A stretch of 57,580 bases of DNA, taken from the IMG/VR virus record IMGVR_UViG_2529293084_000006. One strand, 5' to 3'. Below are positions 12,683 to 31,775 of this stretch, piece after piece. Within the stretch, counting starts at the first letter, position 1. Every line of letters begins with the position of its first letter. The notes beneath the pieces are model-generated. The model did no database searches and was not told the origin of the DNA. It saw only the letters and a list, made by a program, of their open reading frames with translations. The translations under genes and the position numbers were made by a program. The DNA comes from a virus (taxonomy: Duplodnaviria; Heunggongvirae; Uroviricota; Caudoviricetes).

Positions 12683-13285
12683 TTACGCGTTAAGAAGGGT
12701 CAGGACGCGTTCACGCGCCATACGTTGATTAATGGCTTTCTGTAGCGCGCCGCTGTTGCGCGCCTCCTGCCATGCTTTCATGGAGCGAACAGCCGAGTCA
12801 GCCTCCTGATAGGCAGGATATGTCACAGGACTGACATCCAGCAGACGGGAAAAGCGGGTTATCTCGCGAATAACAACCCCGTCCTCATCCTGATACCACT
12901 CCTCGCCGTCACGGGCGACACGGAAAGCAAAAGATGACTGGTTAATATCTCCACGTTGCATCGGGGCCAGCACCAGATCACGAATGGTCTGTGTCTCCGG
13001 AGCCTGGATGTCATAGCGCAATCCGCGCTCATCAACTGAAAGATTCAGCGTGCCTGCTGCACTACGCCCAAGAATAAAATTAGGATCGTGGTTAAACAGT
13101 GCGCGTACATCATCACCAAGCACATCGTCAAAAGCGCCGGGCCGGATGATTTCGCGGAATGAACCAAATATCAGCTCAGAACGACAGTCAAACACCGATC
13201 CATAACCGATAATGTGCGCAGGGTTATCGTCATGCCGCTCAGCACGCACCTCACCGCTGTAACAACGGATTTCACGGTCATTCAT
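12683..13285 (-). CDS. Prohead protease, HK97 family
   Basis: ORF 12683..13342 trimmed to the ATG at 13285 (MNDREIR..., RBS GAGGGA upstream); sits between portal and major capsid. Confidence 0.7.
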   Translation of the reverse strand: MNDREIRCYSGEVRAERHDDNPAHIIGYGSVFDCRSELIFGSFREIIRPGAFDDVLGDDVRALFNHDPNFILGRSAAGTLNLSVDERGLRYDIQAPETQTIRDLVLAPMQRGDINQSSFAFRVARDGEEWYQDEDGVVIREITRFSRLLDVSPVTYPAYQEADSAVRSMKAWQEARNSGALQKAINQRMARERVLTLLNA

Positions 13286-13646
13286 TGGTTTTTCCCTCAT
13301 CATTTTTTGGGGGCTTAAAATCTCCTGCCGGGTTAGCAGCATTCACGCTTACCAGCATCTCATCCAGCCCTTCAACCGGATTCATATCCTCGAATGCGCG
13401 GGCTTCATTACGGCTCATCCATCCATCGGTAATAGCGAAGTGATAGAATTGCGCGCGCTCCTGCGGAGTTCCGCGTAAAAGCCCCGTCAGATTGAACCTA
13501 ACGTAATACCCGGCGGCTAACTCAGCGCGGGTAAACAAGCGACGGTTAAGCTCCTGCTCCCAGTTCGTTACCCACGGCATCATCGTGTAGCGGACAAACT
13601 GAATCGCCTGCGCAGAAATATTGGAGAATGTAACCAGGTGAATCAT
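13278..13646 (-). pseudogene. Portal protein C-terminal fragment (gene interrupted by the Mu-like insertion)
   Basis: 122-aa ORF; the frame ..VTFSNISAQ.. continues the N-terminal fragment ending ..INDLEKATF at 52920, so the two pieces reconstruct a ~415-aa HK97-type portal. Confidence 0.75.
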
Positions 13647-13815
13647 TTGATACCAACGAGGGTTTTAGTGAAAGGAGGTGAAATCACCTGTAAGATACTG
13701 AAATAAAACAGGTGATGTCTGGATGAGCGCTTAAAGTCTATTTGATACCGATTGTGCAATAATTAATCGTTTATTCTAAAATCGGCAAAACTTTTGATAC
13801 TGCGATCTCAACTTT
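13629..13815 (+). repeat. Mu-like left end with three transposase-binding repeats (L1-L3-like)
   Basis: TTTGATAC(C) at 13646, 13741 and 13793, i.e. about 17, 112 and 164 bp from the terminus, close to the Mu L1/L2/L3 spacing as I recall it; terminus begins TGTAACC. Confidence 0.6.
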
Positions 13816-13878
13816 TTAAAGCGTTTAAAACTTCATTAAATCTATATGGCAACTAACATACGGGCCAGCCTCGCCAAA

Positions 13879-14409
13879 CTAACCCGCTTTAGATTCTACC
13901 GGATTTGATTGCCTACTTGTCTCGGTTTTTTCCAAAATCTCTCTGACGCAATCGTCTGGCATATCTACAATCATCAACGCAGCCAGGCGCTTCCTGCCTT
14001 CTAGTTGTAATAAATCCTGGTTTTCTTTATCCAGCAGTGTCAGAACCGTCTCTACACCTTTGCGAGCAAGGAGATTGGTTAACTGTTCTCGTTCGTCTTT
14101 CGTAAGGAATGAAAGCATCTGTGTAAGTTGATCTCCCTTATCACCAGAACAACCAAAATTACCACAAATACCAACATCGTTTGGTGATTCACCCTTGCCC
14201 TCTTTAAGCCACTCAAGACTAACTCCTTCACTTTCAGAAATTCGTATAAGGATACTTTCTCTGGGGGCTGGTTGTGTTTGTCCTCCCTTGAAATAGCTGT
14301 TTAATGTGTTGATATTGATTCCCCACGCTCTGGCAGCTGCACTTCTTGAAGGGTAGCGCTTTGTAAGCATTCCAATACGTTCAATAACAGGTTCTTTTCC
14401 CTGCGACAT
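13879..14409 (-). CDS. Prophage repressor (Mu c-like position), HTH DNA-binding protein
   Basis: ORF 13879..14484 trimmed to ATG at 14409 (MSQGKEP..., RBS AGAGG); N-terminal helix-turn-helix; divergent from ner with a palindrome-rich operator region between. Confidence 0.6.
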   Translation of the reverse strand: MSQGKEPVIERIGMLTKRYPSRSAAARAWGININTLNSYFKGGQTQPAPRESILIRISESEGVSLEWLKEGKGESPNDVGICGNFGCSGDKGDQLTQMLSFLTKDEREQLTNLLARKGVETVLTLLDKENQDLLQLEGRKRLAALMIVDMPDDCVREILEKTETSRQSNPVESKAG

Positions 14410-14491
14410 AAAGATACCTCTTGGTGCTTTTCTAAGGAAAGGTTTCTTTCTATTTATCCAATTGAAAAATAAGGATAAAAGCAAAAATTAG

Positions 14492-14529
14492 CCAAAATAC
14501 CAAAAATACCTTGATTTGGTATTTTTGGT
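14492..14529. promoter_or_regulatory. Candidate operator: perfect 12-bp inverted repeat ACCAAAAATACC-7bp-GGTATTTTTGGT with an adjacent CCAAAATAC direct copy
   Basis: Read directly in the c-ner intergenic region. Confidence 0.45.
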
Positions 14530-14539
14530 GATGCATTAT

Positions 14540-14579
14540 TTACCCGTGCAGATATCCGCACGAATATCCGCGCGGGTAA
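14540..14579. promoter_or_regulatory. Second operator-like element: TTACCCG ... CGGGTAA arms enclosing direct repeats GATATCCGCA / GAATATCCGCG
   Basis: Read directly; 20-60 bp upstream of the ner start, where the early promoter is expected. Confidence 0.4.
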
Positions 14580-14599
14580 CTTTTTAGAATAGAGGAAGT

Positions 14600-14848
14600 A
14601 TGAGTAGAAGAGAAGTTTCAGATCACGATTGGCCGCCTGAAATCATCAAGGCGCGCTTACACATGGCTGGCTTATCACTGCGCTCTTTATCTTTAAAGGC
14701 TGGTTACAGCAGGGATTCGCTGAAAAGCGTATTACGTACTCCTTGCCGACCGTATCAGCAAATAATTGCTGATGCTCTTGGGGTATCGCCTGAAGAAATC
14801 TGGCCCAGTAGATACCAGGTTAAGAGCTATATGAGAAAGGCGTCATGA
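14600..14848 (+). CDS. ner: Ner-like DNA-binding early regulator
   Basis: 82-aa protein; C-terminal ..IIADALGVSPEEIWPSRYQ matches the Mu Ner / Nlp family motif (EVIWPSRYQ). Confidence 0.8.
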   Translation: MSRREVSDHDWPPEIIKARLHMAGLSLRSLSLKAGYSRDSLKSVLRTPCRPYQQIIADALGVSPEEIWPSRYQVKSYMRKAS

Positions 14849-14849
14849 T

Positions 14850-16940
14850 ATGTATGTCATTGCAAAAGAACTGATTGGCGCGCCCGGAATGCCTGCTACA
14901 ACAAAAGGTATTCGCCAGGCATTACAACGTTACGTACAAGGGAAAAGCTGTTGTTCCCGTCGTCGCTCAGGCTCTAAAGCAACTGAATACAGCATCGACT
15001 GTTTACCTGAAGTGACGCAGCAGGCATTACGTGAACGTTATGCCCTGCAACTGATGACGCAAAAAGCCGATGAATCACCGGCTCCGGTGGTGACAAAGGC
15101 CAGACGCTCATCTGACGTGGTTGATGCGGTGGAGGCATATCGCGGATCACCACAACTGATGGTCGAACGCCTCAATGCCCTGACTGAAAACCAGCGCCAG
15201 GTGGCTGATGCACGAATCGCGATCGTCAGCGAAGTGATGAAAGTCGCGCAACAACCCGGTTTCAGCTGCGCGAAGGCTATCCGGTTTATCGTTGACAACC
15301 TGGCACGTTCACAGCTGGACGAGCGCATTGTGGCAATGGTTGAGACGGCGAACGCCAAAAAGGGAAACAGCCGTGCGTTGAGTGAAATCACGCTGAAGCG
15401 ATGGATTGCGGCCTTTAACAAGGCACAGAACGCCGCTGAACGCCTGCTTTTACTGGCACCGGGTAAACGCCAGGAAATAAAAGCCGAAGATATTAACTGG
15501 CTGCCCGAATTTCTGGCGCAGTATCGCCAGTCAAACGGCCGACCAATGACCGAGGCTTACGAGGATTTTGTCGCTGAATGGCAGCACCGGCACGCTGATG
15601 AGCCTTATATGCTCGATATCATGCCGTCTTATGACACCATTCGCCGCGCAATGAAGAAACTGCCGGAAGTGGTGAAACAAAAAGGCCGGGTGACCGGCAG
15701 TGAATACCGCCAGCTTGAGGGATTCACGCGCCGCGACTGGTCCAGAATGCCGGTGAATTATGTCTGGATTGGTGACGGTCACGGCATGAAGCTGAAATGC
15801 GCGCACCCGGTTCACGGGCGGCCATTTGCACCGGAAGTAACCTTTGTTATCGATGGCGGCACGCGCTTTGTGGTGGGCTGGAGCCTTGACCTGGCTGAAA
15901 ATGTTTTCGCCGTAGCCGGTGCCATACAGCACGGCATTCGCCATCACGGCAAACCGTTTCTGTATTACTCGGATAACGGTTCCGGGGAAACCGCCGACAT
16001 CCTGGATAAGGAGATTGTGGGGATACTGCCACGACTGGGGATTAATCACCCGACAGGGATTGCCGGTAACCCGCAGGGACGGGGCATTATCGAACGGCTT
16101 AACCGCACATTACCGATGCGCATAGCCCGTAAATACCGCACCTATTTCGGGAAAGGTGCAGATCGCGAGACGTTACGCAAAACCAACCGCGATTTACGCT
16201 CGGCATTTACCGCCCTGCAACAGGGCAAACGGCTGAACGCCCGGCAGCAGTCAGCGATGCGTGATTTACCGTCCTGGGCTGAACTGATTGATGCCATTCG
16301 TGATGGTGTTGAGTGGTACAACAACCGGCCGCACGATGAATTACCGGTGAAGCCGAACGGCAAGCATTACAGCCCGGCGGAGTTCAGAAAAAAACGCCTG
16401 GCGGAAGAGGACACGGAAATTGAATGGCTGTCCGATGTTGAGCTGCGGGATATGTTCCGGCCGATGGTGGAACGCCCTGTTAGACGCTGTGAAATACGCT
16501 GGCTGAATAATATTTACTACGCGCCCGAGCTGCGTGACGAGCATGGCCGTAAGGTGCTTATCAGCTATGACATTCATGATGCCGAACGAATTATCGTACG
16601 TCGCCTGGATGGCAGCGTGATTTGCGAGGCGGTATGGGACGGCAATAAACGCGAAGCCTTCCCGGTCAGCGCGGAATACTACAAACAGCAGCAACGCCTT
16701 AAAGGCATGCGTAAACGCGCAGAGGAAAAAATCCGTGATGCCGAGGATGAGGTGGTCAACGTGCTGGAGCACAAGCCGCAGGAGCCCTGGCTGGAAAACA
16801 TCTATCGCCCGGTAGGTAATACGGTGGCCGTTCAGCAACCTGCCGTTGATGATGAGCCTGATGAAGAATACGAGCGTAATTTCCAGCGGGGATTGCAGTT
16901 GCTGGAAGCGAAATTAAAAGAAAATGACCCGCTGGCCTGA
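14850..16940 (+). CDS. A: Mu-type DDE transposase A
   Basis: 696-aa ORF immediately after ner and before the B ATPase; N-terminal DNA-binding region resembles MuA; size as MuA. Confidence 0.85.
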   Translation: MYVIAKELIGAPGMPATTKGIRQALQRYVQGKSCCSRRRSGSKATEYSIDCLPEVTQQALRERYALQLMTQKADESPAPVVTKARRSSDVVDAVEAYRGSPQLMVERLNALTENQRQVADARIAIVSEVMKVAQQPGFSCAKAIRFIVDNLARSQLDERIVAMVETANAKKGNSRALSEITLKRWIAAFNKAQNAAERLLLLAPGKRQEIKAEDINWLPEFLAQYRQSNGRPMTEAYEDFVAEWQHRHADEPYMLDIMPSYDTIRRAMKKLPEVVKQKGRVTGSEYRQLEGFTRRDWSRMPVNYVWIGDGHGMKLKCAHPVHGRPFAPEVTFVIDGGTRFVVGWSLDLAENVFAVAGAIQHGIRHHGKPFLYYSDNGSGETADILDKEIVGILPRLGINHPTGIAGNPQGRGIIERLNRTLPMRIARKYRTYFGKGADRETLRKTNRDLRSAFTALQQGKRLNARQQSAMRDLPSWAELIDAIRDGVEWYNNRPHDELPVKPNGKHYSPAEFRKKRLAEEDTEIEWLSDVELRDMFRPMVERPVRRCEIRWLNNIYYAPELRDEHGRKVLISYDIHDAERIIVRRLDGSVICEAVWDGNKREAFPVSAEYYKQQQRLKGMRKRAEEKIRDAEDEVVNVLEHKPQEPWLENIYRPVGNTVAVQQPAVDDEPDEEYERNFQRGLQLLEAKLKENDPLA

Positions 16941-16947
16941 AATAAAA

Positions 16948-16977
16948 AAATAACCCGAGCGGCGACTCAGGTTATTT
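16948..16977 (+). terminator. Hairpin in the A-B intergenic region (possible attenuator)
   Basis: AAATAACCCGAG-CGGCGA-CTCAGGTTATTT, about 11 bp stem with one mismatch, followed by T-rich sequence. Confidence 0.3.
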
Positions 16978-17011
16978 GATTAAACAAGGTATCAAATGAG
17001 AGGTTAATAAT

Positions 17012-17944
17012 ATGACTGATATTAACGATGTAATCAAGACCATTGATGAACTTATTGATGGCGGCGTACTGACGCAGTATGCCATCGCCAGAGAGGCGGG
17101 AATTTCCGACGGCACATTATCGGCTTTCCGCAAGGGGAAATATAAAGGCGATAACGCCGCTGTGGCTGCTTCCCTGCGTTCCTGGTATGAAAACTGGAAT
17201 AAACAAAGCGCACTGCCGGAACCGCCGCAGTTTGTGGAAACGCAGACAGTTCAGGAGCTGCGCGCACTGTTTCAGGCGGTTCGCCTGATGGGCTGTATTA
17301 ACGTCATTGTGGGCGTGCCGGGGGTAGGTAAAACGGCCACCGCCCGTAATTACTGCCAGGAGCAACCAAACACCTGGATGATCACCCTGTCACCCGCGCA
17401 CTCCAGCGTCACGGAGTGTCTGCTGGAGCTGGCCGATGCGCTGGGGATTGATTACACCCGCGCGAACAAAGGGGCATTATCCCGCGCCATCCGCCGTCGC
17501 CTGATGGGAACGCGTGGACTGGTGATTGTGGATGAGGCGGATCATCTTGGTATTGACGGTCTGGAGCAACTCCGGGCAATTCAGGACGCCACGGGGATCG
17601 GGATGGTGCTTATTGGTAACCCGCGCGGATTGTTTAAAGGTGGACGCCGCGCCTTTGATGATTTATCGCGCCTGTTCAGCCGTCTTGCCCGTACAAAACA
17701 ACTTCGCAAGGCCAAAAAGGCGGATGTGCTGGCCATTGCCAGGGCATGGGGTATCAGTGGTGAGGCCGAGCTGGCCGTCATGCAGGCTATCGCTGAAAAG
17801 CCGGGAGCGTTACGCGTTCTGACACATACGCTTAACCAGGCGTGGCTCACCGCCAGCGGTGAAGGTGCGGCGCTGACAGAAAAACATATTAATGCGGCCT
17901 TTAAAGAGGTTTATACCAACCCTGAATTACTCTCACAGGTGTGA
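17012..17944 (+). CDS. B: Mu B-type AAA+ ATPase (transposition target DNA activator)
   Basis: 310 aa; Walker A GVPGVGKT; N-terminal HTH; follows the transposase. Confidence 0.85.
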   Translation: MTDINDVIKTIDELIDGGVLTQYAIAREAGISDGTLSAFRKGKYKGDNAAVAASLRSWYENWNKQSALPEPPQFVETQTVQELRALFQAVRLMGCINVIVGVPGVGKTATARNYCQEQPNTWMITLSPAHSSVTECLLELADALGIDYTRANKGALSRAIRRRLMGTRGLVIVDEADHLGIDGLEQLRAIQDATGIGMVLIGNPRGLFKGGRRAFDDLSRLFSRLARTKQLRKAKKADVLAIARAWGISGEAELAVMQAIAEKPGALRVLTHTLNQAWLTASGEGAALTEKHINAAFKEVYTNPELLSQV

Positions 17945-17946
17945 TT

Positions 17947-18168
17947 ATGGCGGTATTTTATATTCCTGATATTTACGGACGCTTTTACCTGGTTAATTTC
18001 GATAACGTGAAGGTGATTTCACTGGCCGAAAATAAAGAATGTGGCGATTTACTTTTTGAATTTAATGACCGCACACGAATGGTGATATCTGCCGGACTTG
18101 ATCGCGAAGGTGCGACAGAAGTTTACAGCGGAATATGCCGTTCTGTTGGTGCGAAACAAGTCAGCTAA
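17947..18168 (+). CDS. Small early protein at the Mu kil position
   Basis: ORF 17941..18168 trimmed to ATG at 17947 (73 aa); first gene after B as kil is in Mu; assignment by position only. Confidence 0.3.
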   Translation: MAVFYIPDIYGRFYLVNFDNVKVISLAENKECGDLLFEFNDRTRMVISAGLDREGATEVYSGICRSVGAKQVS

Positions 18169-18180
18169 ATGAGGTGTTAT

Positions 18181-18435
18181 ATGAATATGCAATCCTGCGG
18201 TAACAAAATGAATTTATTCGACTCCCTGAACAGCGCGCGCCGTCTGACCGAACTTGCCGGTGCGGTACTGGAACGCAGTAAGCGCTATCCGCAACGTTTT
18301 GCACTGAAAACCACGCCGCCGGCAGGCAACGTGCAGGGAACCGGTGAAATTGAAATCACCATACAGACCAACGGCCTGCGCCGCCGTGTGAAGGCCACCC
18401 GCATCAGCGGCTGCACGGTTTACTGGGAGGTGTGA
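18181..18435 (+). CDS. Hypothetical early protein
   Basis: ORF 18169..18435 trimmed to ATG at 18181 with GAGGTG RBS. Confidence 0.4.
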   Translation: MNMQSCGNKMNLFDSLNSARRLTELAGAVLERSKRYPQRFALKTTPPAGNVQGTGEIEITIQTNGLRRRVKATRISGCTVYWEV

Positions 18436-18436
18436 G

Positions 18437-18718
18437 GTGAAACGAAATCTCATTGCATGGGCGTGGTCGAGTGGTCTTATTGAGTTTGGTTACGTCCTGC
18501 CAGAAGGTGCATTGCCGATAGTTGCCGGAAAGCCTGCCACGGTACGGCATGTGATTGAGGTTATGGCGCGTCATGGACGTGATGAACAGAAGCAGTTACT
18601 GGTTCCGGGGATACCGGAAGCGGTGACGGAGGAAGAAGCCTTTAATGCCATGATTCGGTTCTGCCGTGAGGTCAGACGCCGGGTCAGTTATCCAAACAGA
18701 ACGAGGACCAGAGGATGA
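18437..18718 (+). CDS. Hypothetical early protein
   Basis: 93-aa ORF, GTG start preceded by GGAGG. Confidence 0.4.
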   Translation: MKRNLIAWAWSSGLIEFGYVLPEGALPIVAGKPATVRHVIEVMARHGRDEQKQLLVPGIPEAVTEEEAFNAMIRFCREVRRRVSYPNRTRTRG

Positions 18719-18987
18719 GTAAAGTCGTACGCATTATTTTCGAATACAAGGAAGACGTTATCTGTAAAAACTCTGATGGCAGTGCGCACATGGGGGTAAG
18801 TCTGGATATACGGTCAACCGGAATAAAGAAGAAAGATAATGGACCCGCCACGATTTTTGGAGTGGTTATGCTCGCGGAAAGCAGAAACTTCGCAGAGCTT
18901 GTGGCAATGAAAGCCAGTGCATTCATGAAAGACAGGGGCATGGCTTCCGGGGTTATTAACGGTAATGAATTTAATCAGCAGGGGTAA
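18715..18987 (+). CDS. Hypothetical early protein (tandem paralog 1)
   Basis: Begins MSKVVRIIFEY...; the next gene begins MSKVRVIFEF... Confidence 0.45.
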   Translation: MSKVVRIIFEYKEDVICKNSDGSAHMGVSLDIRSTGIKKKDNGPATIFGVVMLAESRNFAELVAMKASAFMKDRGMASGVINGNEFNQQG

Positions 18988-18991
18988 TTCC

Positions 18992-19285
18992 ATGAGCAAA
19001 GTACGCGTTATTTTTGAATTTAACCACGTAATGCATGAAGTAAAGCCAGCCGGTAATGATAGTCAGGAAATCACGGAGGGGGTTACTGCCACTGTAAAAG
19101 TCGAACGTGATACGGAGAACAGACCGACAGGCCCATGTGATGTTTATGCGCAAATTCTTAAATATCACAGCCCCACAATTATTCAGTTTCTGACAGATGA
19201 ACTACAGGGTTCCATGCAGGCCATGGGGGTAAGCAGCTCCGTTGAACGCCGTTCTGTTCAGAACGGACCAGATACATTGCAATAA
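18992..19285 (+). CDS. Hypothetical early protein (tandem paralog 2)
   Basis: ORF 18965..19285 trimmed to ATG at 18992; N-terminus paralogous to 18715..18987. Confidence 0.45.
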   Translation: MSKVRVIFEFNHVMHEVKPAGNDSQEITEGVTATVKVERDTENRPTGPCDVYAQILKYHSPTIIQFLTDELQGSMQAMGVSSSVERRSVQNGPDTLQ

Positions 19286-19296
19286 GGAAAAACAAA

Positions 19297-19827
19297 ATGG
19301 CAAAACGCGTTACAAAATTAAAGGCCGCAGCCGAGGCTGCACCGCAGACCCGCGAAGAGGTCAGCCGCGATATCCGCACCCTGGGCGATATTCAGCGAGA
19401 GGCGCTGCGGCTGGAAACGGCGATGAATGATGAAGTGGCAGAAATCACCGCCCGTTATACGCCGCAGATTGAAAACCTTAAAAAAGAAATCAAAGTGCTT
19501 TTTAAGGGGATTCAGGACTGGTGCAAAACCAACCGAGATGAGCTGACGAACGGAGGCAAAACAAAAACTGCCAATCTGACCACCGGCACGGTGTCATGGC
19601 GGCTGGGAAATCCATCATGCAGCGTCAGCCGTGATGTGGAAGGCGTGATTGAAATGCTGCGCCGTATGGGGCTTGAGCGATTCATCCGCACGAAAGAGGA
19701 AGTGAACAAGGAAGCCGTCCTGGCGGAGCCGGATGCGGTGAAAGGCATTGCCGGTATAAAGGTGAATAAAGGCGCTGAAAGTTTTTATGTCGAGCCTTTT
19801 GAACAGGACGCCGGACTGAATAAATAA
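19297..19827 (+). CDS. gam: Gam-like host-nuclease inhibitor (DNA-end-binding)
   Basis: 176 aa; matches Mu Gam as I recall it along its length (ANRDELTNGGKxKTANLxTGxVSWR, LGLxRFIRTKxExNKEA). Confidence 0.8.
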   Translation: MAKRVTKLKAAAEAAPQTREEVSRDIRTLGDIQREALRLETAMNDEVAEITARYTPQIENLKKEIKVLFKGIQDWCKTNRDELTNGGKTKTANLTTGTVSWRLGNPSCSVSRDVEGVIEMLRRMGLERFIRTKEEVNKEAVLAEPDAVKGIAGIKVNKGAESFYVEPFEQDAGLNK

Positions 19828-19924
19828 CACCACATTAAATCTTTAAATATCACATCGTTTTAATTATGGCGCTCGCGTCAGGGGACTGCCTGCGCCTGAA
19901 AGCTGAAAATAAGGAATCGGAAAC

Positions 19925-20467
19925 ATGGCATATTTTTATTTCAAATTAGACATAGTGTACACAAATAAATATTTAACCGAATATCAGCGGGATGTTTTAC
20001 CGCTACGCAACAGTATTCTTCGGGCATTACTGAAAAATACAGGCGCTGCCGGATTGCGCTTAAAGCCGTTCGCCATGGACGTAATCAGTGAGTTTTATTT
20101 TTCTGGTTCTCTGCCTGCGGGCTGGCGTAAGCGCGATGATGTGGCTTTTATCGGGGGCGGACCGTGCTTTATTGCCAGACCTGATGAGTCATGCCCTGAA
20201 GGTCCGGCGATTGCCGCAATGGTTGAAGCCGCTGAACGCGAGTTAAGAAAGCGTCCTGATTTCCTTGTCTGGCTCTGTGAAAAGCTGGGGGTAATGAGAA
20301 TCCCCTCCATGTTTAACACGGACTCCTGGTGGACCCCTTCGTTCTCCCGTGATGCCCTGTGCGTGGTGTTTAAAGTGGGCGCTTATGGCAGGGAAATAAA
20401 CGGGTGTATTCCTGAAGAATGCCAGGAAATTAAACATTCTGAATATGTGGCGCTGACGGAGGAATAA
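19925..20467 (+). CDS. Hypothetical early protein
   Basis: 180-aa ORF with RBS. Confidence 0.4.
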   Translation: MAYFYFKLDIVYTNKYLTEYQRDVLPLRNSILRALLKNTGAAGLRLKPFAMDVISEFYFSGSLPAGWRKRDDVAFIGGGPCFIARPDESCPEGPAIAAMVEAAERELRKRPDFLVWLCEKLGVMRIPSMFNTDSWWTPSFSRDALCVVFKVGAYGREINGCIPEECQEIKHSEYVALTEE

Positions 20468-20470
20468 TTC

Positions 20471-21004
20471 ATGATTGATGCAAAAGTGCTTGAAGGGGTT
20501 AAAAACTGGCTGAGTATTTACGGGCGTCTGACCTGCGGAGTTCTGGCTGAAAAAATGAATATGCCGCCATCCTCGATGGTTTATTTTCTGCGTGATGCGG
20601 TTGATGCCGGGGTGCTGACGGAATGTAACGGTTTTTATGATATTCCGCGTCCCCGCCCGGTGCAGCCGGTTCGTCGCAAATGCAGCCAGGAGTCTGCGGC
20701 TGATGATGTTCAGTGGTGCAGCTTCAGAAAATCCCTGCCGTGGATTGAGGGGCATGATATTCCGTCGATGGCGTGGGAATTTGCTCAGGGCATACTGACC
20801 TGTGAAACCGTTTATGTGGTGGCTGAAGTTGATGAGCAGGCCATGAAAGAAGGTGTACCCCAGTTTGTGATGGCGTATATCGACATACGCCTGGGTGTCA
20901 TTATCTGCGGTTTAAGCGGCTGGAATATCACCGGACATGTTCTGCGTTACCTGATTGTTGACCGGACAGCGGCACCGGCCGCGATTTCTGCGGAGGTGGC
21001 GTAA
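20471..21004 (+). CDS. Hypothetical early protein, possible N-terminal winged-helix
   Basis: 177-aa ORF with GGAGG RBS. Confidence 0.4.
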   Translation: MIDAKVLEGVKNWLSIYGRLTCGVLAEKMNMPPSSMVYFLRDAVDAGVLTECNGFYDIPRPRPVQPVRRKCSQESAADDVQWCSFRKSLPWIEGHDIPSMAWEFAQGILTCETVYVVAEVDEQAMKEGVPQFVMAYIDIRLGVIICGLSGWNITGHVLRYLIVDRTAAPAAISAEVA

Positions 21005-21519
21005 TGTTCTTTAAAACATCGAACCCTGCCGCGCTGGCCGCGTGGCAAAAATATCAGCAGGACTGCCAGAAAGTTAAGGATGAGGCAAAGCGCCTTGAGG
21101 CTGTGCTGAATGTTGATTGCCGGTCGGTATTTGTATCCGATATCAGTGGCTTTTGTTTTAAGGGGCTGAGTTTTACGGATGACAAATATCCTTTTCATCG
21201 TGATTTATGGCGAAAACCAACTGCGTCGAATGGCTGGAGCTGCACACCGCGCACGTCACGTATCCCTAAAGCCCTGCGTGTTGCCTCTGATGAACTGAAT
21301 ATTCTGTGGTTTGAATATTCGCCCGTCACGTATGCCAGAACCGATGCGCTGTTGTTCTGGCTGGGCATTGACTTCTCAGCAATATTGCATGGTCCCGTGA
21401 AGTGGTTCTGCGTTGACGATGTGATTTATCTCCAGTGCGGCGTAAAACCCGCAAAACAGAGAATGACCGAAATTCTGCCTGATGAGTTTTATGCTGCCGA
21501 AAAGCGAGTCAGGGGGTGA
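21004..21519 (+). CDS. Hypothetical early protein
   Basis: 171-aa ORF with GGAGGTG RBS. Confidence 0.4.
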   Translation: MFFKTSNPAALAAWQKYQQDCQKVKDEAKRLEAVLNVDCRSVFVSDISGFCFKGLSFTDDKYPFHRDLWRKPTASNGWSCTPRTSRIPKALRVASDELNILWFEYSPVTYARTDALLFWLGIDFSAILHGPVKWFCVDDVIYLQCGVKPAKQRMTEILPDEFYAAEKRVRG

Positions 21520-21522
21520 TGC

Positions 21523-22074
21523 ATGATGAAATTACAACCCATGGGGAGAAAAGGCCGTGCACCCGCTCATGTCCGTGCGTGGACACCTGAAGAAGATGCA
21601 CTGCTGATTGCGCTTTATCCATCCACCCCGGTTAAGGATATTGCTGTCAGGGTAAAAAGAAGTTTCTGGGGTGTACATCACCGGATTGTTTTATTACGCG
21701 GCACTTACCCGGAGTTGCTCAAATGCAAACGTCCAAGATTTAAACATGATGAAGATAAATTTATCCGAAAAAATGCCAGAACGATGACCGGTAAGCAAAT
21801 AGGAGAATATCTGGGGCGAGACCGGGATTCTGTCCACAATCGGGCGAGATATATTGGCGTAAGCATGAAAAAATACGGAGAATTGCTGCCCTTCACCCGT
21901 ATATCTGATGATGATGTTCGTCTTATTCGTGAATTACGGGATGCTGAATCACCACGACGTCTTACCTTCCGGGAAATAGGCGAGAAATTTGAATTATCCG
22001 AGAGTACGGTAAATTTTATTTATCACCATCGCCGGACTGCCGAAGATGTTGTATTACGGGAGTTAATGCCATGA
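21523..22074 (+). CDS. Protein with Mor/C-family C-terminal HTH domain and an N-terminal extension
   Basis: 183 aa; C-terminus ..IRELRDAESPRRLTFREIGEKFELSESTVNFIYHHRR resembles the Mor C-terminal HTH as I recall it. Confidence 0.45.
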   Translation: MMKLQPMGRKGRAPAHVRAWTPEEDALLIALYPSTPVKDIAVRVKRSFWGVHHRIVLLRGTYPELLKCKRPRFKHDEDKFIRKNARTMTGKQIGEYLGRDRDSVHNRARYIGVSMKKYGELLPFTRISDDDVRLIRELRDAESPRRLTFREIGEKFELSESTVNFIYHHRRTAEDVVLRELMP

Positions 22075-22382
22075 TAACGACATTATTTGTTGAATCAGAC
22101 GAGCCTCTGGTATGTGCCGCCGGAATGTCGGTTTGTGGCGGAACGCTGACCGGTGTTTATTTCGGGGATTTGCGCGGTTATCCCTGGCATTCACTGGATG
22201 ACGCATTTCCGCCTGATATGGAGGCTGTCGTGCTGATTGTTCAGTATGGTGACCAACAGGAACTGCGCATCGGCCATATGGGGTATGAAGGCTTTTTTAT
22301 TGATGAAGAAACCGGAGCCTGCCTTGAAGATGAGGACGGACAGGTGACGCACTGGTGCCATATTTCAGCTTTACCGGAATGA
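22071..22382 (+). CDS. Hypothetical early protein
   Basis: 103-aa acidic ORF. Confidence 0.35.
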   Translation: MITTLFVESDEPLVCAAGMSVCGGTLTGVYFGDLRGYPWHSLDDAFPPDMEAVVLIVQYGDQQELRIGHMGYEGFFIDEETGACLEDEDGQVTHWCHISALPE

Positions 22383-22396
22383 CGGGAGGTGAATGC

Positions 22397-22747
22397 GTGA
22401 GAAGTTATATTGATAATGAAAAACTGAAGACAATCAGCGACTGTCTTAGCTTGCTGGCAAAAATAAAAGAAACCATTGAAGAGATTAAATTTCAGCTTGA
22501 ATACGCACCCTGTGGTGATGATACATGGCGTAACTCTGCCAGAAAAGCACTGGCTGTCTTTCAGAAACAACGCCGGACTGTTGAATACCGCCTTGCTGTA
22601 TTACGCCAGGAGGAAAAGGAAAGAAATATAAGATGTCACGAGCGCGTTAATAACTTCCTTGTTCGTGAATTAAAAGAACGTGTGCCGGAGTCGGTATTTT
22701 TTGAGTGTGAGGCTGTTGCCCGTAGCAAAGCACTGGAAACTGATTAA
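22397..22747 (+). CDS. Hypothetical early protein
   Basis: ORF 22355..22747 trimmed to GTG at 22397 with GGAGG RBS. Confidence 0.35.
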   Translation: MRSYIDNEKLKTISDCLSLLAKIKETIEEIKFQLEYAPCGDDTWRNSARKALAVFQKQRRTVEYRLAVLRQEEKERNIRCHERVNNFLVRELKERVPESVFFECEAVARSKALETD

Positions 22748-22759
22748 ACAGGCAGGTGA

Positions 22760-23095
22760 ATGATGAGTATTGAATTAAGATCGTCTTATGAATATCGTAA
22801 AATTCTCATCGCCGGAGGCATGAAACCGGAAGATGCAGAAAAAATTGTTTCTTTTATGGATAAAGAATGTGACAAACGGGATATGCCAGAAATTATTATG
22901 GATGACATGATTCTGCATTCAGCCGTAGCGTTAAGCCCGTTATGGATTGTGCATTCTCTTGCTGAAATTGCCAAAGGCACCGATAAACAGGCAGCTGTTG
23001 CTGCCCTTCAGACGCTTAATGAAATGCGTATATCTCCACGCCCGACATTAATACATATGATTCTCTCCAGTATGGAGGATAAAGCAAATGAATAG
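22760..23095 (+). CDS. Hypothetical early protein
   Basis: 111-aa ORF. Confidence 0.35.
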   Translation: MMSIELRSSYEYRKILIAGGMKPEDAEKIVSFMDKECDKRDMPEIIMDDMILHSAVALSPLWIVHSLAEIAKGTDKQAAVAALQTLNEMRISPRPTLIHMILSSMEDKANE

Positions 23096-23285
23096 TCTAC
23101 CCGCTGGATGGGCGCGGCCACTAATGGCCAGGAAGCATCATTTTTTTAAAACAGGCGAAAATATCAGTATATGTGGACGGTGGTTATATCTGGCTCATAA
23201 TCGCGAGCCGGATACATTTGAAAGCCCTGATGACTGTGCCGAATGCCGCAGAAGAGTGAATAAGGAGAAAGATAATGGACAATAG
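23088..23285 (+). CDS. Small Cys-containing protein (possible zinc ribbon)
   Basis: 65 aa with ICGRW...CAEC; GGAGG RBS. Confidence 0.35.
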   Translation: MNSLPAGWARPLMARKHHFFKTGENISICGRWLYLAHNREPDTFESPDDCAECRRRVNKEKDNGQ

Positions 23286-23571
23286 TTCTCTGTTGTTCTG
23301 GTGCTTATATATCACATCCTTTTTCGGCGCATTTGTTATTACCCGGTGGTTATGTCGAAAAATCATCTGCTTTTTTGATAAAAGACATCCGGTTGAACGG
23401 GCGGCTGATGCGCTCATTCAGCAGGCCATTGTGTTATATAGCGGTGAATTTTTCTGCCGAATAACAACCAGAGATGGCTGGCACATAATGATTATTCCAC
23501 CAACACACCATGCCCGGTGGGATGAGGCAGAAAAGGCTTTCCATGTCCGTAAAAAGGTAAATACGGTATGA
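23275..23571 (+). CDS. Small membrane protein
   Basis: 98 aa with a hydrophobic N-terminal helix; AAGGAG RBS. Confidence 0.35.
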   Translation: MDNSSLLFWCLYITSFFGAFVITRWLCRKIICFFDKRHPVERAADALIQQAIVLYSGEFFCRITTRDGWHIMIIPPTHHARWDEAEKAFHVRKKVNTV

Positions 23572-24077
23572 GAGGAAAACTGATATCCGCCATTCATGTG
23601 GCAAAGCGCGAGCTTGCCCTGGATGATGAGACTTATACATCCGCGCTGCTGGCAGCCACCGGCAAAACCAGCTGCCGGGATATGTCAGCGGATGAGTTAT
23701 CCCGCGTGCTGGATGTTTTCAAAAAACGCGGTTTTAAAGTGCGCCAGAAGCCGGTTAACCGGGCCTTAAAACCGGGTACGGTGACCGCCAAAATTCGTGC
23801 CATCTGGAAGGTAATGCACCGGCAGGGCTTTATCTCTGATGGTGCGGAAACCGCCCTTAACCGCTGGGTGAAATCGCAGACGGCCGCGCAGAACGGCGGC
23901 GAAGGTGTGGCAAACTGGCAGTGGCTGGAGCAACACCCCGCCCTGGCCTCAGATGTGCTGGAGCGTCTCAAGCGATGGCACCGCCGCAAAATGCTGGCCG
24001 CGATGGGAATGCCCGAACGCACGCTGATGGGGTATGACGCCGTTTGCAGGCAGTATGAAAAATCACTTCCCCGTTAA
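23568..24077 (+). CDS. GemA-like protein (Mu gp16 family)
   Basis: 169 aa; last early gene before a strong terminator; motifs (HVAKRELALDDETY, DMSxxELxRVLDxFKxxGFK) match my recollection of GemA. Confidence 0.55.
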   Translation: MRGKLISAIHVAKRELALDDETYTSALLAATGKTSCRDMSADELSRVLDVFKKRGFKVRQKPVNRALKPGTVTAKIRAIWKVMHRQGFISDGAETALNRWVKSQTAAQNGGEGVANWQWLEQHPALASDVLERLKRWHRRKMLAAMGMPERTLMGYDAVCRQYEKSLPR

Positions 24078-24081
24078 CCCC

Positions 24082-24112
24082 AAATCCCGCCACAACGCGG
24101 GATTTTTATTTT
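24082..24112 (+). terminator. Rho-independent terminator at the end of the early operon
   Basis: AAATCCCGC-CACAAC-GCGGGATTT stem followed by TTTTTATTTT, about 10.45 kb from the left end. Confidence 0.7.
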
Positions 24113-24146
24113 AAACTTACCGGGAACGCGAGAACCGGAGGCTGAT

Positions 24147-24572
24147 ATGGCAGAAACTCAGATGAGCATGTTTGGTGGTGACAGTGAGCAACTGCACGCC
24201 CTTATCGACCGCCTTGATGACATCCCTGATGATGTTCTCAAAAAGAACTGGCCGCGGACCCTGTCAGAACTGGTTGAAGTCACCGGCGCAGAACTTCAGC
24301 GTCAGGGGATTGAGCCGGTACTGGCCGGTAAACTGGCACGCAAGGTGGCTGCGGCTCAGGCCGCCTATATGGGCGGACGGGGTTATTACCTGCCGGTCGG
24401 GGAATCTCTCTTTGCCGAGCTGCGAAACAATGAGATATTTTCGCGCTGGGACCGGGGCGAGAAAATTGAATCCCTTCGCCGCCATTACCGGATGTCAGAA
24501 ACCCAGATTTATACCGTCATACGCGAACAGCGCCGTCTGCATCTGGCAAGAACGCAACCGCCACTTTTCTGA
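24147..24572 (+). CDS. Mor/C-family transcription activator (C-like, late-gene activator by position)
   Basis: 141 aa; C-terminus (..GGRGYYLPVG..LRNNEIFSRW..RMSETQIYTVIREQRR) matches the Mor/C HTH pattern; located just upstream of the lysis genes. Confidence 0.65.
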   Translation: MAETQMSMFGGDSEQLHALIDRLDDIPDDVLKKNWPRTLSELVEVTGAELQRQGIEPVLAGKLARKVAAAQAAYMGGRGYYLPVGESLFAELRNNEIFSRWDRGEKIESLRRHYRMSETQIYTVIREQRRLHLARTQPPLF

Positions 24573-24643
24573 TATTCCGCAAAGCCTGCCGCCTCTCCTT
24601 CACCGTTACGCTGACTCAGAGAACATCATGAGACAGCGTAACA

Positions 24644-25144
24644 ATGCCAAAACTCCCCGCATCACTGCGTAAAAAGCTGATTGCCCTTGTTCTGGCCGGT
24701 GCCGGGACGTTCACTATTGCCACGCATTACACCGGTTACTGGGAAGGGAAAGAAAACTCCACGTATATCGATCCCACCGGTACACCCACCATCTGTTACG
24801 GCCATACCGGCCCGGATGTGAAACCGGGTATGACCCTGACAGATGAAGAATGCCTGGAACTACTGGAAAAGGACATGAAATGGGCCTTTGCGGCCATTGA
24901 TCGGCGTGTTCAGGTGCCGCTTACCCGTGGTCAGACGGTGGCGCTGGCTTCGTGGATCTTCTGGGCCGGTGAAACGAACTTTCGCAACTCCACGCTTCTG
25001 CGCCTGATCAATGCCGGGCAGATGCCCGCGTCCTGTAAGCAGTATATCCGCTGGATTTATTCAAAGGGGGTGAAACTCCCCGGCCTTGAGGCCCGCCGTT
25101 CGGCGGATGAATGGTTATGTCGCTACGACTTGCCGAAAGTCTGA
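24644..25144 (+). CDS. Endolysin, T4-lysozyme-like muramidase with an N-terminal hydrophobic (SAR-like) segment
   Basis: 166 aa; motif EGKENSTYIDPTGTPTICYGHTG; N-terminal ALVLAGAGTFTIA. Confidence 0.75.
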   Translation: MPKLPASLRKKLIALVLAGAGTFTIATHYTGYWEGKENSTYIDPTGTPTICYGHTGPDVKPGMTLTDEECLELLEKDMKWAFAAIDRRVQVPLTRGQTVALASWIFWAGETNFRNSTLLRLINAGQMPASCKQYIRWIYSKGVKLPGLEARRSADEWLCRYDLPKV

Positions 25145-25217
25145 ACCGCTTCTGGCGACCGCTCATGATAGCGCTGCTGTGTGCGGTACTGCTGTTACGG
25201 GGTGTCCTGTGGCTGCG

Positions 25218-25607
25218 GTGAATAATGCCTTACCGGCCCTGATTGCCGGGGCGTGCATGGCGGCGCTGGGGATTATCGCTGTACTGGTTGCCGCGATATG
25301 GGGAATGCACCAGAAGACACAGCGCCTTGAAGACAATAATCAGGTGCTTGTGCGTGAGCGGGATGAGGCGCGTCAGGTGCTGGCAAATCAGCAGCACACC
25401 CTGCAACTCATTTCACAAATCAGTGAGGCGGCCACGAATGAAAAACAACAGAACATTCAGCACAGCGAGGGGCAGCAGAGCGTTGTCCGCCGGTCGCTGG
25501 CAGCAGTGCCTGCGGCCTCTGCCCCTGTTCCTGATGATGTGGCTGATCGGGTGCGCCGGGCCGTCTGTGAAATACGTGCCTGTGAAGCCGGTGCCGATCC
25601 CCGCTGA
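25218..25607 (+). CDS. i-spanin (Rz-like)
   Basis: N-terminal TM helix then a long coiled-coil; start uncertain (GTG 25218 or ATG 25257); track ORF 25086..25607. Confidence 0.45.
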   Translation: MNNALPALIAGACMAALGIIAVLVAAIWGMHQKTQRLEDNNQVLVRERDEARQVLANQQHTLQLISQISEAATNEKQQNIQHSEGQQSVVRRSLAAVPAASAPVPDDVADRVRRAVCEIRACEAGADPR

Positions 25608-25809
25608 ATGGCTGGCTGACTGCCTGGTCCCTCCTGCGCCGGAGCCGTTCACGTTTGGGGCATCGGTCACTTACAACCTGCAACTGCTGGCGGTGATCAA
25701 GAACTGCAACGTGGACAAGGCCAGTATTCGTCGTCTGGAGGCGCGGCGACAACATGAATTTACTGATATGGCCGGAACGCCTGCTGTTCCGGCAGGAAAG
25801 ACGAAGTAA
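25438..25809 (+). CDS. o-spanin lipoprotein (Rz1-like), overlapping the i-spanin in another frame
   Basis: Internal ATG at 25438 with GAGG RBS; signal peptide with lipobox LIGC; proline-rich. Confidence 0.55.
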   Translation: MKNNRTFSTARGSRALSAGRWQQCLRPLPLFLMMWLIGCAGPSVKYVPVKPVPIPAEWLADCLVPPAPEPFTFGASVTYNLQLLAVIKNCNVDKASIRRLEARRQHEFTDMAGTPAVPAGKTK

Positions 25810-25819
25810 GGAAAAAGGT

Positions 25820-26047
25820 ATGGATGATTCAGATCGTGCTCAGGCTGTGATGGAGCGGGGATCAGAACGCGCCCTTTGTAACCGGCTGACACGTAAGCGC
25901 CGGGCAATGGATGCTCCGGGCAGACGTGTCTGCGCAGACTGTGGCGGAGAGATCCCCGCCGCACGTCTTGTTGCTGTGCCGGATGCCATCCGTTGTGTGA
26001 ACTGCCAGAACATCATGGAGGCCCGTTATGTGGGTCAGCATCGTTAA
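25820..26047 (+). CDS. TraR/DksA-family C4 zinc-finger protein
   Basis: 75 aa from ATG 25820; CADCGGEIPAARL...RCVNCQ. Confidence 0.55.
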   Translation: MDDSDRAQAVMERGSERALCNRLTRKRRAMDAPGRRVCADCGGEIPAARLVAVPDAIRCVNCQNIMEARYVGQHR

Positions 26048-26336
26048 AGATTATGTTGTGCCGATCCTTTCGGCGACGGCAACCGCTGGCGGGATATTCA
26101 TGGCGCTGATGCGCAAAACGTTTGTCCCCCGCGAGGCCTTTGAAAAACTCTCCGACCGCGTTGAGAAGGTGGAAACCCGCCTGTCGTCACTGCCGACAGA
26201 AGCCGAGGTCAACCGTCTGAATGTGGAAATCGTGACCCTGCGGGGTGAACTGAAAACCACGAACGCCACGCTCCGCTCTGTCTCCTATCAGAACGAACTG
26301 CTGCTGGAGCAGGCTGTAAGGAAAAAAACGCAATGA
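26028..26336 (+). CDS. Small membrane / coiled-coil protein (Mu gp25 position)
   Basis: 102 aa; N-terminal TM then coiled coil. Confidence 0.4.
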   Translation: MWVSIVKDYVVPILSATATAGGIFMALMRKTFVPREAFEKLSDRVEKVETRLSSLPTEAEVNRLNVEIVTLRGELKTTNATLRSVSYQNELLLEQAVRKKTQ

Positions 26337-26623
26337 GTGATTTCATTACTGAAGATCAGCGTCTGGTCATTCTGCGGTCGCTGGCAGATTACAACGGTGA
26401 ACTGGGTGAATCCGTGCTCCAGGACTGTCTGGATGATTACGGCCACCGCGTGTCCCGCGACACCGTTCACACCCACATTGCCTGGCTTGCCGAGCAGGGA
26501 CTGGTGCGCAAACGCGTTCTGATTAACGGTTATTTCATCGCAGAGCTGACTGGTCGTGGGCAGGATGTGGCGGAAGGCCGGGCCTGCGTTCCGGGTGTGA
26601 AGAAACCACGCGCAAGGGGGTAA
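26333..26623 (+). CDS. Conserved Mu-like phage protein (gp26 position)
   Basis: 96-aa ORF upstream of the terminase genes. Confidence 0.4.
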   Translation: MSDFITEDQRLVILRSLADYNGELGESVLQDCLDDYGHRVSRDTVHTHIAWLAEQGLVRKRVLINGYFIAELTGRGQDVAEGRACVPGVKKPRARG

Positions 26624-26625
26624 CG

Positions 26626-27207
26626 ATGGACAAGCCGACGCGTGGTCGTGTACGCAAGGTGGATTTGCTCCCCGACAGCATCCGTAAGCCGCTGCTGGAA
26701 ATGCTGCGTGAAAAACGTCTGACGCAGGTCCAGATCCGCGAGGAAATCAACCGTCTGATCCGTGAGGCGGGCCTGCCGGAAGAGCAGCAGCTTTCACCGG
26801 CGGCCATCAGCCGGGAAGCCTCCCGTAATGAGCTGATTGCCCGTAACCTGCGTGATTTACGCGAGCAGACAAAAGCCATGATGGCCGAACTGGGGGACAA
26901 GCCAACCGGTGAAACCACTGCATTGATCCTGGAGATGTCCCGCGCCCTGATGTACCGCCGTCTGCGTGCCGCGACCGAATCCCTGAACAGTGACAGCGAC
27001 GTGGATATGCGTCTTATTAAGGACATCCTCCTGTCAGCACAGCGTGCGGAAAGTGCCGCCGAGCGCAGCATTAAGCGTGAAAAAGAAATCAGGGCTGCAT
27101 TTGCTGAAGAGATGGCAAACGCCGTCACCGACGAGCTGCGCGGCGTGGACGGGATGAGTGAACAGCTTGAGTCCCGTATTAAGGGGATTCTGTTGGGTAA
27201 AGTCTGA
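26626..27207 (+). CDS. Putative terminase small subunit (Mu gp27 position)
   Basis: 193 aa, charged and helical; stop overlaps the large-terminase start (ATGA). Confidence 0.5.
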   Translation: MDKPTRGRVRKVDLLPDSIRKPLLEMLREKRLTQVQIREEINRLIREAGLPEEQQLSPAAISREASRNELIARNLRDLREQTKAMMAELGDKPTGETTALILEMSRALMYRRLRAATESLNSDSDVDMRLIKDILLSAQRAESAAERSIKREKEIRAAFAEEMANAVTDELRGVDGMSEQLESRIKGILLGKV

Positions 27208-30460: not shown

Positions 30461-31775
30461 TTTAGGTTATGCCGCCACGCTTCCCTCAAAAGAGGCGGTG
30501 GCATACTTCCGCGCCAAAGGGGCGCATATCAGCTGGAACTGGTTCGAAACAAACGCAGATGTTCATGCCCGTTCATTCACGGCGGCAAAAGTGGCACGCC
30601 TGGACGTACTGACCACACTACAGGCGGAAGTGCAGCGTGCTGTTGATGAGGGGATTTCACAGAAAGCATTTATCCGCACACTGACACCCCGCCTGCAAAA
30701 GCTGGGATGGTGGGGAAAACAGATTGTGGTGGACAGTGCCGGTAACGCGGAAGAAGTGCAGCTGGGCAGTCCCCGCCGTCTGGCGCTGATTTACAACGTG
30801 AACACCCGTGTGGCTTACAATGCCGGGCGTTACACGCAGATGATGAACAACACGGACACGCATCCGTTCTGGCAGTATGTGGCGGTGATGGACAGCCGCA
30901 CCCGCCCGGCGCATTCCGCCCTTAACGGTCTGGTATTCCGCTATGACGATCCGTTCTGGAATACACACTACCCGCCCAATGGCTGGAACTGTCGCTGCCG
31001 TGTCCGGCCATTGTCTCAGGCCCGTCTGGATGCGATGGGGTTATCCGTTTCATCCGGTCAGGATCATCTCTCCACCCGCAATGTTGAGGCTGGCGTGGAT
31101 AAGCAGACCGGGGAAGTCAGAGAAATGCCGGTGACCACATATTCAGATGGCACCAGAACCATGACACCGGATGTGGGCTGGTCATATAACCCCGGTTCGG
31201 CGGCGTTCGGCACAGACCAGGCGCTGATCCGTAAACTGATCGAGGTGAAAAGCCCGGCGCTGCGGGAAATGGTGGTTCAGGAGATGAACAACAGCCCGGA
31301 GCGGCAACTGGCGTTCCGCATCTGGGCAAAAAACATCATGAAAACCCGGCGAGGCGGTAACGATATCCGCACGCTGGGCTTTATGACCGAAAGCATTGCG
31401 CAGGCGGTGGAAAGCCGGACGGGAACGCCACCGGCCCGCCTGCTGGCGATGAGCGGTAAAAATGTGCTCCATGCGGACAGCATGAAACATCAGAATGACG
31501 GTATCGCCCTGACGCCGGAGGATTTCGGGCGCTTACCGGCAATGCTGGCAAGGCCAAAAGCGGTACTGTGGGACAAACGGCACAACAATCTGATGTATAT
31601 CGTGGAAAATCAGGATGGCAGTGTGCAGATTGCCGTTAATGCACCGTACAGCCTGAAGCGTCAGCCGGATAAACTGGATGTGATTGTTAATGCTTACCGG
31701 GTTATCAATATGGATAAGCTGAAATCGGATATCCGGGGCGGAATGCTTGAGGTACTGGAAGGAGATATTGATTAA
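30444..31775 (+). CDS. Head morphogenesis protein (Mu F-like)
   Basis: 443 aa following the portal; conserved FWQYVAVMDSRTRPAHSALNG region. Confidence 0.75.
   Translation: MAQGIDLGYAATLPSKEAVAYFRAKGAHISWNWFETNADVHARSFTAAKVARLDVLTTLQAEVQRAVDEGISQKAFIRTLTPRLQKLGWWGKQIVVDSAGNAEEVQLGSPRRLALIYNVNTRVAYNAGRYTQMMNNTDTHPFWQYVAVMDSRTRPAHSALNGLVFRYDDPFWNTHYPPNGWNCRCRVRPLSQARLDAMGLSVSSGQDHLSTRNVEAGVDKQTGEVREMPVTTYSDGTRTMTPDVGWSYNPGSAAFGTDQALIRKLIEVKSPALREMVVQEMNNSPERQLAFRIWAKNIMKTRRGGNDIRTLGFMTESIAQAVESRTGTPPARLLAMSGKNVLHADSMKHQNDGIALTPEDFGRLPAMLARPKAVLWDKRHNNLMYIVENQDGSVQIAVNAPYSLKRQPDKLDVIVNAYRVINMDKLKSDIRGGMLEVLEGDID

Follow-up and report, generated by a model that had tools for sequence, protein, structure and literature searches.

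Four-base-pair target-site duplications and TA right ends in Sp18-type transposable prophages of Escherichia coli

Prophages of the Sp18 lineage depart systematically from phage Mu: a 4-bp target-site duplication and a right end that finishes with TA are the normal signature of this lineage and no defect of the copy described here. That copy lies in what we call the window, a 57,580-nucleotide stretch of DNA from a tailed-phage record (IMG/VR IMGVR_UViG_2529293084_000006). With a probability of roughly 90%, window positions 13629..52924 are an intact Sp18-type transposable prophage that entered, by DDE transposition, the portal gene of a resident prophage of the HK97 type.

An Sp18-type element in a resident portal gene

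The left junction reads ...attggAGAA followed by TGTAACCAGG, with the first T of the element at 13629, and the right junction reads ...GCCGCGCTATA followed by AGAAggtgg, with the final A of the element at 52924. Longer reads across the same junctions are ...ATATTGGAGAA followed by TGTAACCAGGTGAATCATTTGATACC on the left and ...GGTATCAAAAAAATCGCCGCGCTATA followed by AGAAGGTGGC on the right. The 5-nt flanks differ (GAGAA on the left, AGAAG on the right), and moving the right boundary 1 base inward gives GAGAA versus AAGAA, with one mismatch. Both flanks belong to a minus-strand block of head genes from another prophage, and the features that define the insertion are as follows.

13629..52924, plus strand: complete Sp18-like transposable prophage, 39,296 bp, TGTAACC...GCGCTATA (ends common to more than 40 copies elsewhere)
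13625..13628, unstranded: AGAA, left copy of the 4-bp target-site duplication (junction read, intact target)
52925..52928, unstranded: AGAA, right copy of the 4-bp target-site duplication (junction read, intact target)
13278..13628, minus strand: interrupted portal gene of the resident HK97-type prophage, C-terminal part (ORF list, frame, Phage_portal)
52925..53804, minus strand: interrupted portal gene, N-terminal part (frame on rejoining, Phage_portal profile)
53952-55685, minus strand: large terminase, upstream of the N-terminal part of the portal gene
12683-13342, minus strand: S78 prohead protease of the resident prophage
11443-12672, minus strand: major capsid gene of the resident prophage

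Removing 13629..52928 (the element and one AGAA), which joins 13628 to 52929 in one open frame, restored a single in-frame portal ORF that matched the Pfam Phage_portal profile in one stretch, over profile positions 2-321 of 321 (E = 2e-98). A 197-nt query across this join was 100% identical to uninterrupted portal genes annotated in O157:H7 genomes; full identity held for the best 25 records, and 111 records were at least 99% identical. The uninterrupted target reads ...TTGGAGAAGGTGG..., or TTGG-AGAA-GGTGG around the insertion point, with G as the base preceding AGAA. Since G occupies this place in the intact target, the A at 52924 belongs to the element and is not a mutated fifth duplicated base. 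The boundaries were also set independently by more than 40 other copies, in which similarity ends at the same two nucleotides and the flanks are unrelated.

A preliminary description of these junctions had suggested the comparison with an uninterrupted portal gene, which fixed the target sequence, identified the fifth base as G and confirmed where that description had placed both boundaries, with its coordinates and junction sequences. Its observations that only the 4 bp AGAA are perfectly duplicated and that the left end starts with TG and the right end finishes with TA rather than CA proved correct as well, the first borne out by the intact target and the second by the junction reads. The 5-bp duplication with one mismatch that it had left open is rejected, as the A at 52924 was invariant in all copies examined.

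Splitting the portal gene should disable head assembly of the resident prophage. The insertion is a lineage marker: the window's own junction had no full-length match among 5,426 complete E. coli genomes, and we found it only in one independent IMG assembly (taxon 2529293218), on two contigs (L003 and L027).

The element aligned to Sp18 of E. coli O157:H7 Sakai over 38,304 of its 39,296 bp, in three collinear blocks with 97.5% identity, and its termini (TGTAACCAGGTGAATCATTTGATACC ... GGTATCAAAAAAATCGCCGCGCTATA) were identical in Sakai Sp18 and in every other copy examined. Sakai Sp18, a Mu-like prophage inserted in sorM, has a 4-bp flanking repeat of its own (TAAA); the window element occupies a different site, the portal gene, and is about 540 bp longer. 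The first 372 bp of the element had matches in 232 E. coli records and the final 375 bp in 228; about 230 complete E. coli genomes carry Sp18-type elements, at many different sites. The ends of these elements adjoin many different genes, often within other prophages and in up to 4 places per genome, and this variability of the insertion sites, judged from the flanking genes of dozens of genomes, indicates transposition rather than site-specific integration. Sp18 itself was reported to be intact, to undergo no excision as a circle and to be packaged efficiently (PMC2669165), and Sp18-like phages have been found at variable sites, also inside Stx phages (PMC7430833; PMC10132054). Such elements are common in Shiga-toxin-producing E. 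coli, often within Stx phages and other prophages.

These ends bear on annotation. A search for TG...CA termini with a 5-bp repeat misplaces the ends of Sp18-type elements, and boundary calls should instead use TGTAACC...GCGCTATA together with a 4-bp repeat. In the Sakai record (NC_002695.2; region 5040770-5080700, L031) the 'prophage Sp18' feature is annotated at 5040971..5079729, whereas the ends as defined here, flanked by TAAA, lie at 5040970..5079724; the feature is thus off by 1 nt on the left (inside the element) and by 5 nt on the right (outside it). RefSeq also annotates a 'tRNA-OTHER' in Sp18-type prophages, between the head-morphogenesis and virion-morphogenesis genes (L001 21994-22074, L032 21201-21280 and L033 17871-17951); ARAGORN found no tRNA anywhere in the window.

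Transposition genes and end repeats

The genes and repeats relevant to transposition lie near the two ends of the element.

13629..13653, plus strand: left terminus, beginning with TG, with 17 nt before the first putative transposase-binding repeat TTTGATAC at 13646-13653 (L1-like)
13741..13748, plus strand: second left-end repeat TTTGATAC (L2-like)
13793..13800, plus strand: third left-end repeat TTTGATAC (L3-like)
13879..14484, minus strand: divergently transcribed ORF (its Sakai equivalent, ECs_4943, is annotated 'regulatory protein'; only a sub-threshold Pfam match)
14600..14848, plus strand: Ner-like small DNA-binding protein (Pfam HTH_35)
14850..16940, plus strand: transposase A, 696 aa, distant MuA homologue (Pfam, BLASTP to MuA)
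17012..17944, plus strand: MuB-like AAA+ transposition ATPase, 310 aa (Pfam Phage-MuB_C, E = 2.5e-25; AAA_22)
52059..52796, plus strand: Mom DNA-modification gene, the final gene on the right-hand side of the element (Pfam Mom, E = 2.6e-77)
52843..52850, minus strand: third right-end repeat, GTATCAAA on the plus strand (R3-like)
52878..52885, minus strand: second right-end repeat (R2-like)
52900..52924, minus strand: right terminus, with repeat GTATCAAA at 52900-52907 (R1-like), then 17 nt to ...GCGCTATA and a 3'-terminal TA

Transposase A scored above the Pfam cut-offs for Mu-transpos_C (63.8 bits, cut-off 21.7) and HTH_Tnp_Mu_1 (28.7 bits, cut-off 23.3), and pairwise BLASTP against a MuA sequence translated from a Mu locus gave a full-length alignment with 23% identity (E = 2e-11). 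Its D309 and D375 aligned with D269 and D336 of MuA, and, when the core was compared with the D/E motifs of retroviral integrases, D375 and E415 fell in the integrase-type motifs DNGS and GNPQGRGIIER. These alignments point to D309, D375 and E415 as the probable DDE residues. A phmmer search of the PDB with transposase A did not reach the MuA chains, and integrase chains were the only PDB sequence matches. Among the tblastn matches listed for the transposase, the closest phages were Yersinia vB_YpM_5 and vB_YpM_6 (79%), followed by Klebsiella Kp4866-3 and Yersinia Tongde (56%), Pseudomonas VW-6B (47%), Mannheimia 3927AP2 and SuMu (43-45%) and D3112/DMS3-type phages (about 30%); Mu itself was absent from these matches. 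The divergently transcribed ORF at 13879..14484 is presumed from its position to encode a repressor.

Counted from the tip, the TTTGATAC repeats start at 18, 113 and 165 in the left end and at 18, 40 and 75 in the right end, with a uniform orientation to the tip, and the 17-nt spacing from the tip to the first repeat recurs at both ends in every group, relatives included. This Mu-like arrangement makes them putative transposase-binding sites.

Mom homologues elsewhere (L145 and L187-L195) adjoin quite different right ends, for example ...GCGTGCGCGGCTTCA in a G+C-rich host (L145), and for others no recognisable Mu-type end lies within 200 nt.

Duplication length and terminal dinucleotides across the lineage

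We read the flanks of junctions from complete genomes and IMG/VR contigs by script and obtained, out of about 270 places, 21 independent insertions with both junctions paired. Six of the 21 pairs came from draft assemblies, in which separate contigs or loci were paired by same genome or sample. The pair L007/L013 (ATCA), with different taxon ids, was left out of the count, and cross-genome flank pairs from IMG/VR (L009/L015, L011/L025, L061/L130 and L068/L128), which do not match, were mostly unusable; the genomes concerned probably carry several copies or are rearranged. The paired insertions were distributed as follows.

TG...TA, Sp18-type: 17 paired insertions, 16 with an exact 4-bp repeat and 1 of 5 bp
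TA...TA, Sp18 variant with left end TATAACCAGG: 1 pair (L072/L140), AGTC, 4 bp
Relatives with TATAGAGAGG...GCGCGCTTTA: 1 pair (L080/L167), GTCG, 4 bp
Relatives with TATGACTAGG...CGCGCTTTA: 2 pairs (L090/L166 and L092/L175), AGGA and GATA, 4 bp
Total: 21 paired insertions, 20 of 4 bp and 1 of 5 bp

The Sp18-type 4-bp repeats were AGAA, AACA, GATA, TAAA (Sakai Sp18), TTCG, GGCG, ACAT, TGCC, TGAC, CGGG, AGCT, TGCT, ATCG, TATA, ATCA and, a second time, TGCC. The two groups of relatives have transposases 72-79% identical to that of the window element. Across the insertions the base preceding the left copy of the repeat varies, and the base preceding the right copy is always the element's A. The one exception in length, L001 (O26 RM10386), has the 5-bp duplication CGTCT, which we checked against an intact target with 100% identity over 200 nt. 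Either the stagger is sometimes 5 bp, and so not strictly constant, or cleavage now and then strays by 1 nt, the cut here falling one base outside the right end with an extra base that matched the target by chance (1 in 4). As a control, a true Mu-type element (TGTATTG...GCTTCA) analyzed by the same route was flanked by CCCAG, a 5-bp repeat.

The right ends were uniform: all 44 matches to the Sp18-type end (about 30 sites) and all 13 right ends of relatives finish with TA. Left ends begin with TG or, in several sublineages, with TA; at five different sites (L061, L065, L068, L069 and L072) TATAACCAGG stands in place of TGTAACCAGG as the left end, giving TA...TA elements. The peculiarities that the preliminary description had noted relative to Mu thus hold against Mu itself but not within the Sp18 type and its close relatives, in which 4 bp and TA are the rule.

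This survey also bears on other explanations of the window's junctions. An accident peculiar to this insertion, in which a 5-bp duplication later lost one G at one junction through imprecise repair or a 1-bp deletion, is very improbable. The original 5-mer could have been GAGAA or AGAAG, one G of which then disappeared, and 5 bp does occur in one family member (L001), but the same loss would have to recur in 20/21 independent insertions, distant relatives included, and Mu strand transfer joins the ends directly to the target strands, with repair templated at every position (PMC3562280). We give slightly less credence still to an element that ends 1 base earlier (...GCGCTAT at 52923) and made a Mu-standard 5-bp duplication, one copy of which was then point-mutated. 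This reading would meet the Mu expectation of 5 bp (PMC3562280) at the cost of the single difference between GAGAA and AAGAA, yet the intact target has G at that position, A closes the right end of every copy whatever the flank, roughly three quarters of 20 independent insertions would need an A 'mutation' of the first duplicated base, and in L001 the 5-bp repeat comes after ...TATA, not ...TAT.

Equally improbable is the idea that TA arose by a disabling CA-to-TA mutation that left the window copy stranded and transposition-dead. Conservation of CA at the two ends has been described for Mu (PMC3562280), and the more distant Klebsiella phage Kp4852-3 has a canonical right end, ...CGCCGCTCTACA, similar to that of the window element. 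However, TA is shared by all of the right ends surveyed, near-identical elements occupy many sites, with up to 4 per genome, and Sp18, with an identical right end, is packaged efficiently (PMC2669165). Left ends, too, switched to TA and still moved; because the five TA-left variants occupy different sites, TA ends can be argued to be competent. Finally, the least credible reading of all places the true ends elsewhere and takes AGAA for a chance match: although a 4-nt flank match has a chance probability of 1/256, which is not negligible for a single case, removal of the element restores the portal gene exactly and all other copies share the boundary.

The 4-bp duplication and TA right end are therefore best read as properties of the lineage, and more distant relatives indicate how far they extend. 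Klebsiella Kp4866-3 (transposase 56% identical) has TG...TA ends, and its record extends only 2 and 3 bases into the flanks, which would fit AGAT as a 4-bp repeat but is too little to inform. Klebsiella Kp4852-3 (transposase 40% identical) has TG...CA ends, and its right end, read from the tip, is very similar to that of the window element (TGTAGAGCGGCG against TATAGCGCGGCG). From these two relatives, the TA right end appears to be derived within the Sp18 branch. For the Kp4852-3 type, IMG/VR yielded three unpaired junctions, two of them left ends and the third a right end, each on its own contig. On balance, we favor the view that phages of the Sp18 type, together with enterobacterial relatives whose transposases are at least 72% identical, form a natural MuA/MuB-type system in which TA-3' replaces the near-universal CA-3' at one or both ends and the target stagger is 4 bp.

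In the targets (n = 14) a weak preference of approximately G-N-N-G-C-N-N-C was seen, with two-fold symmetry about the midpoint of the 4-bp repeat; such symmetry is expected for an even-numbered stagger and, in so small a sample, is only suggestive.

Three further observations concern individual loci. An unrelated intergenic insertion (L213, NZ_CP045712.1 483300-483700), also present in four other genomes, has the left flank AAATATTGGCAAC followed by TGT. The 9-mer AAATATTGG occurs both there and in the flank found in the window, AAATATTGGAGAA followed by TGT, each time at offset -13 to -5; this 9-mer was in no other flank examined, and the sharing may be coincidence or local target preference. 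On contig IMGVR_UViG_2698536392_000015, an Sp18-type right end (L017) and left end (L067) lie head-to-tail, separated by an estimated 2.9 kb or so of non-phage DNA with ATCA at its start and end, as expected either of a small circular replicon with one insertion or of a segment between two copies. The Mu-type control derives from true Mu and is short; contigs of only 10.1 kb (L203) and 12.3 kb (L211) include both of its Mu ends, and its junctions recur in several IMG genomes (right junctions L148, L150 and L152; left junctions L200, L202 and L208).

Mechanism and comparison with known systems

Established Mu and integrase chemistry (PMC3562280) suggests how these junctions might be made. The MuA-like transposase and its MuB-like partner would bind the three TTTGATAC repeats at each end, the first of which begins 17 nt from the tip, and the transposase would free the 3'-OH of the A that closes each end, the right-end A being preceded by T and not C. 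Both ends would then be joined to target phosphates 4 bp apart, instead of the 5 bp of Mu, and repair or replication of the two 4-nt gaps would yield the AGAA repeat. The positions of cleavage and joining are those suggested by genomic scars, and a scar reports the stagger because each junction strand is either directly joined or copied from a joined strand.

In open-access full text we found no report of a 4-bp duplication for any transposable phage or of TG...TA ends for Sp18-type elements, and the papers on SuMu and the Yersinia phages do not describe ends or duplications. Thus, although this kind of prophage is itself known, we did not find the lineage's systematic departure from Mu (4 bp, TA termini) in the literature.

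The window element resembles Mu in its gene order (regulatory gene, ner-like gene, A, B ... mom), in the MuA-type domain set of its transposase and its MuB-type ATPase, in having three repeats per end in a Mu-like layout and in near-random insertion. It differs from Mu in that its transposase is only 23% identical to MuA, its catalytic core has an Asp-to-Glu spacing of 40 residues versus 56 in MuA, and it has a 4-bp duplication and a TA right end in place of a 5-bp target-site duplication and 5'-TG ... CA-3' termini. Mu sensu stricto has the ends TGTATTGATTCA...CGCCGCTTCA, and the window element has neither these nor a close MuA orthologue. Mu is the reference for DDE transposition, and neither its CA ends nor its 5-bp stagger is regarded as variable. 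Of the substitutions of CA at the ends of Mu, TA is reportedly one of the better tolerated (Lee and Harshey, 2001, 2003). Because work on Mu, which has a 5-bp stagger, describes CA as conserved at either end (PMC3562280), one would not expect a TA end to function.

Other transposable phages also differ from the window element. The D3112/Ab30-type and B3-type phages of Pseudomonas have TG-CA ends, and their staggers are longer than the 4 bp found here: the insertion peaks of Ab30, a D3112-type phage, lie five base pairs apart (PMC5977238, Fig. 3 legend), and the B3 duplication is 6 bp (PMC8705779). A 2021 paper described TG-CA as conserved across all Mu-like and B3-like phages described so far, presented the TA-TA prophages of Leptospira as new and posed their existence in other bacteria as a question (PMC8705779). 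These Leptospira prophages (WETA1 type) resemble the Sp18 group in having TA ends and evidence of recent transposition (PMC8705779), and several relatives of the window element are likewise TA...TA; they differ in their 6-bp duplication and in a transposase described as of the B3/Tn552 family (PMC8705779), whereas the window element is TG...TA with 4 bp.

Beyond phages, retroviral integrases have a DDE core homologous to that of the window transposase, and each makes a repeat of characteristic length: 4 bp for MLV and XMRV, 5 bp for HIV and 6 bp for ASV (PMC2857682). Retroviruses are another type of element, with no MuB-like partner and no multi-site ends, so that the comparison is an analogy only. 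Nonetheless, because retroviral repeats range from 4 to 6 bp (PMC2857682), a 4-bp variant in the Mu-like world is mechanistically plausible. If our reading of the lineage is correct, Sp18 and its relatives offer a ready-made comparison for the determinants of stagger length and terminal dinucleotide in DDE transpososomes: an E. coli lineage that is active and widespread, and that combines TA ends with a stagger of 4 bp, would be a tractable system, in Mu's own host, for asking which transposase features set the stagger and the end dinucleotide.
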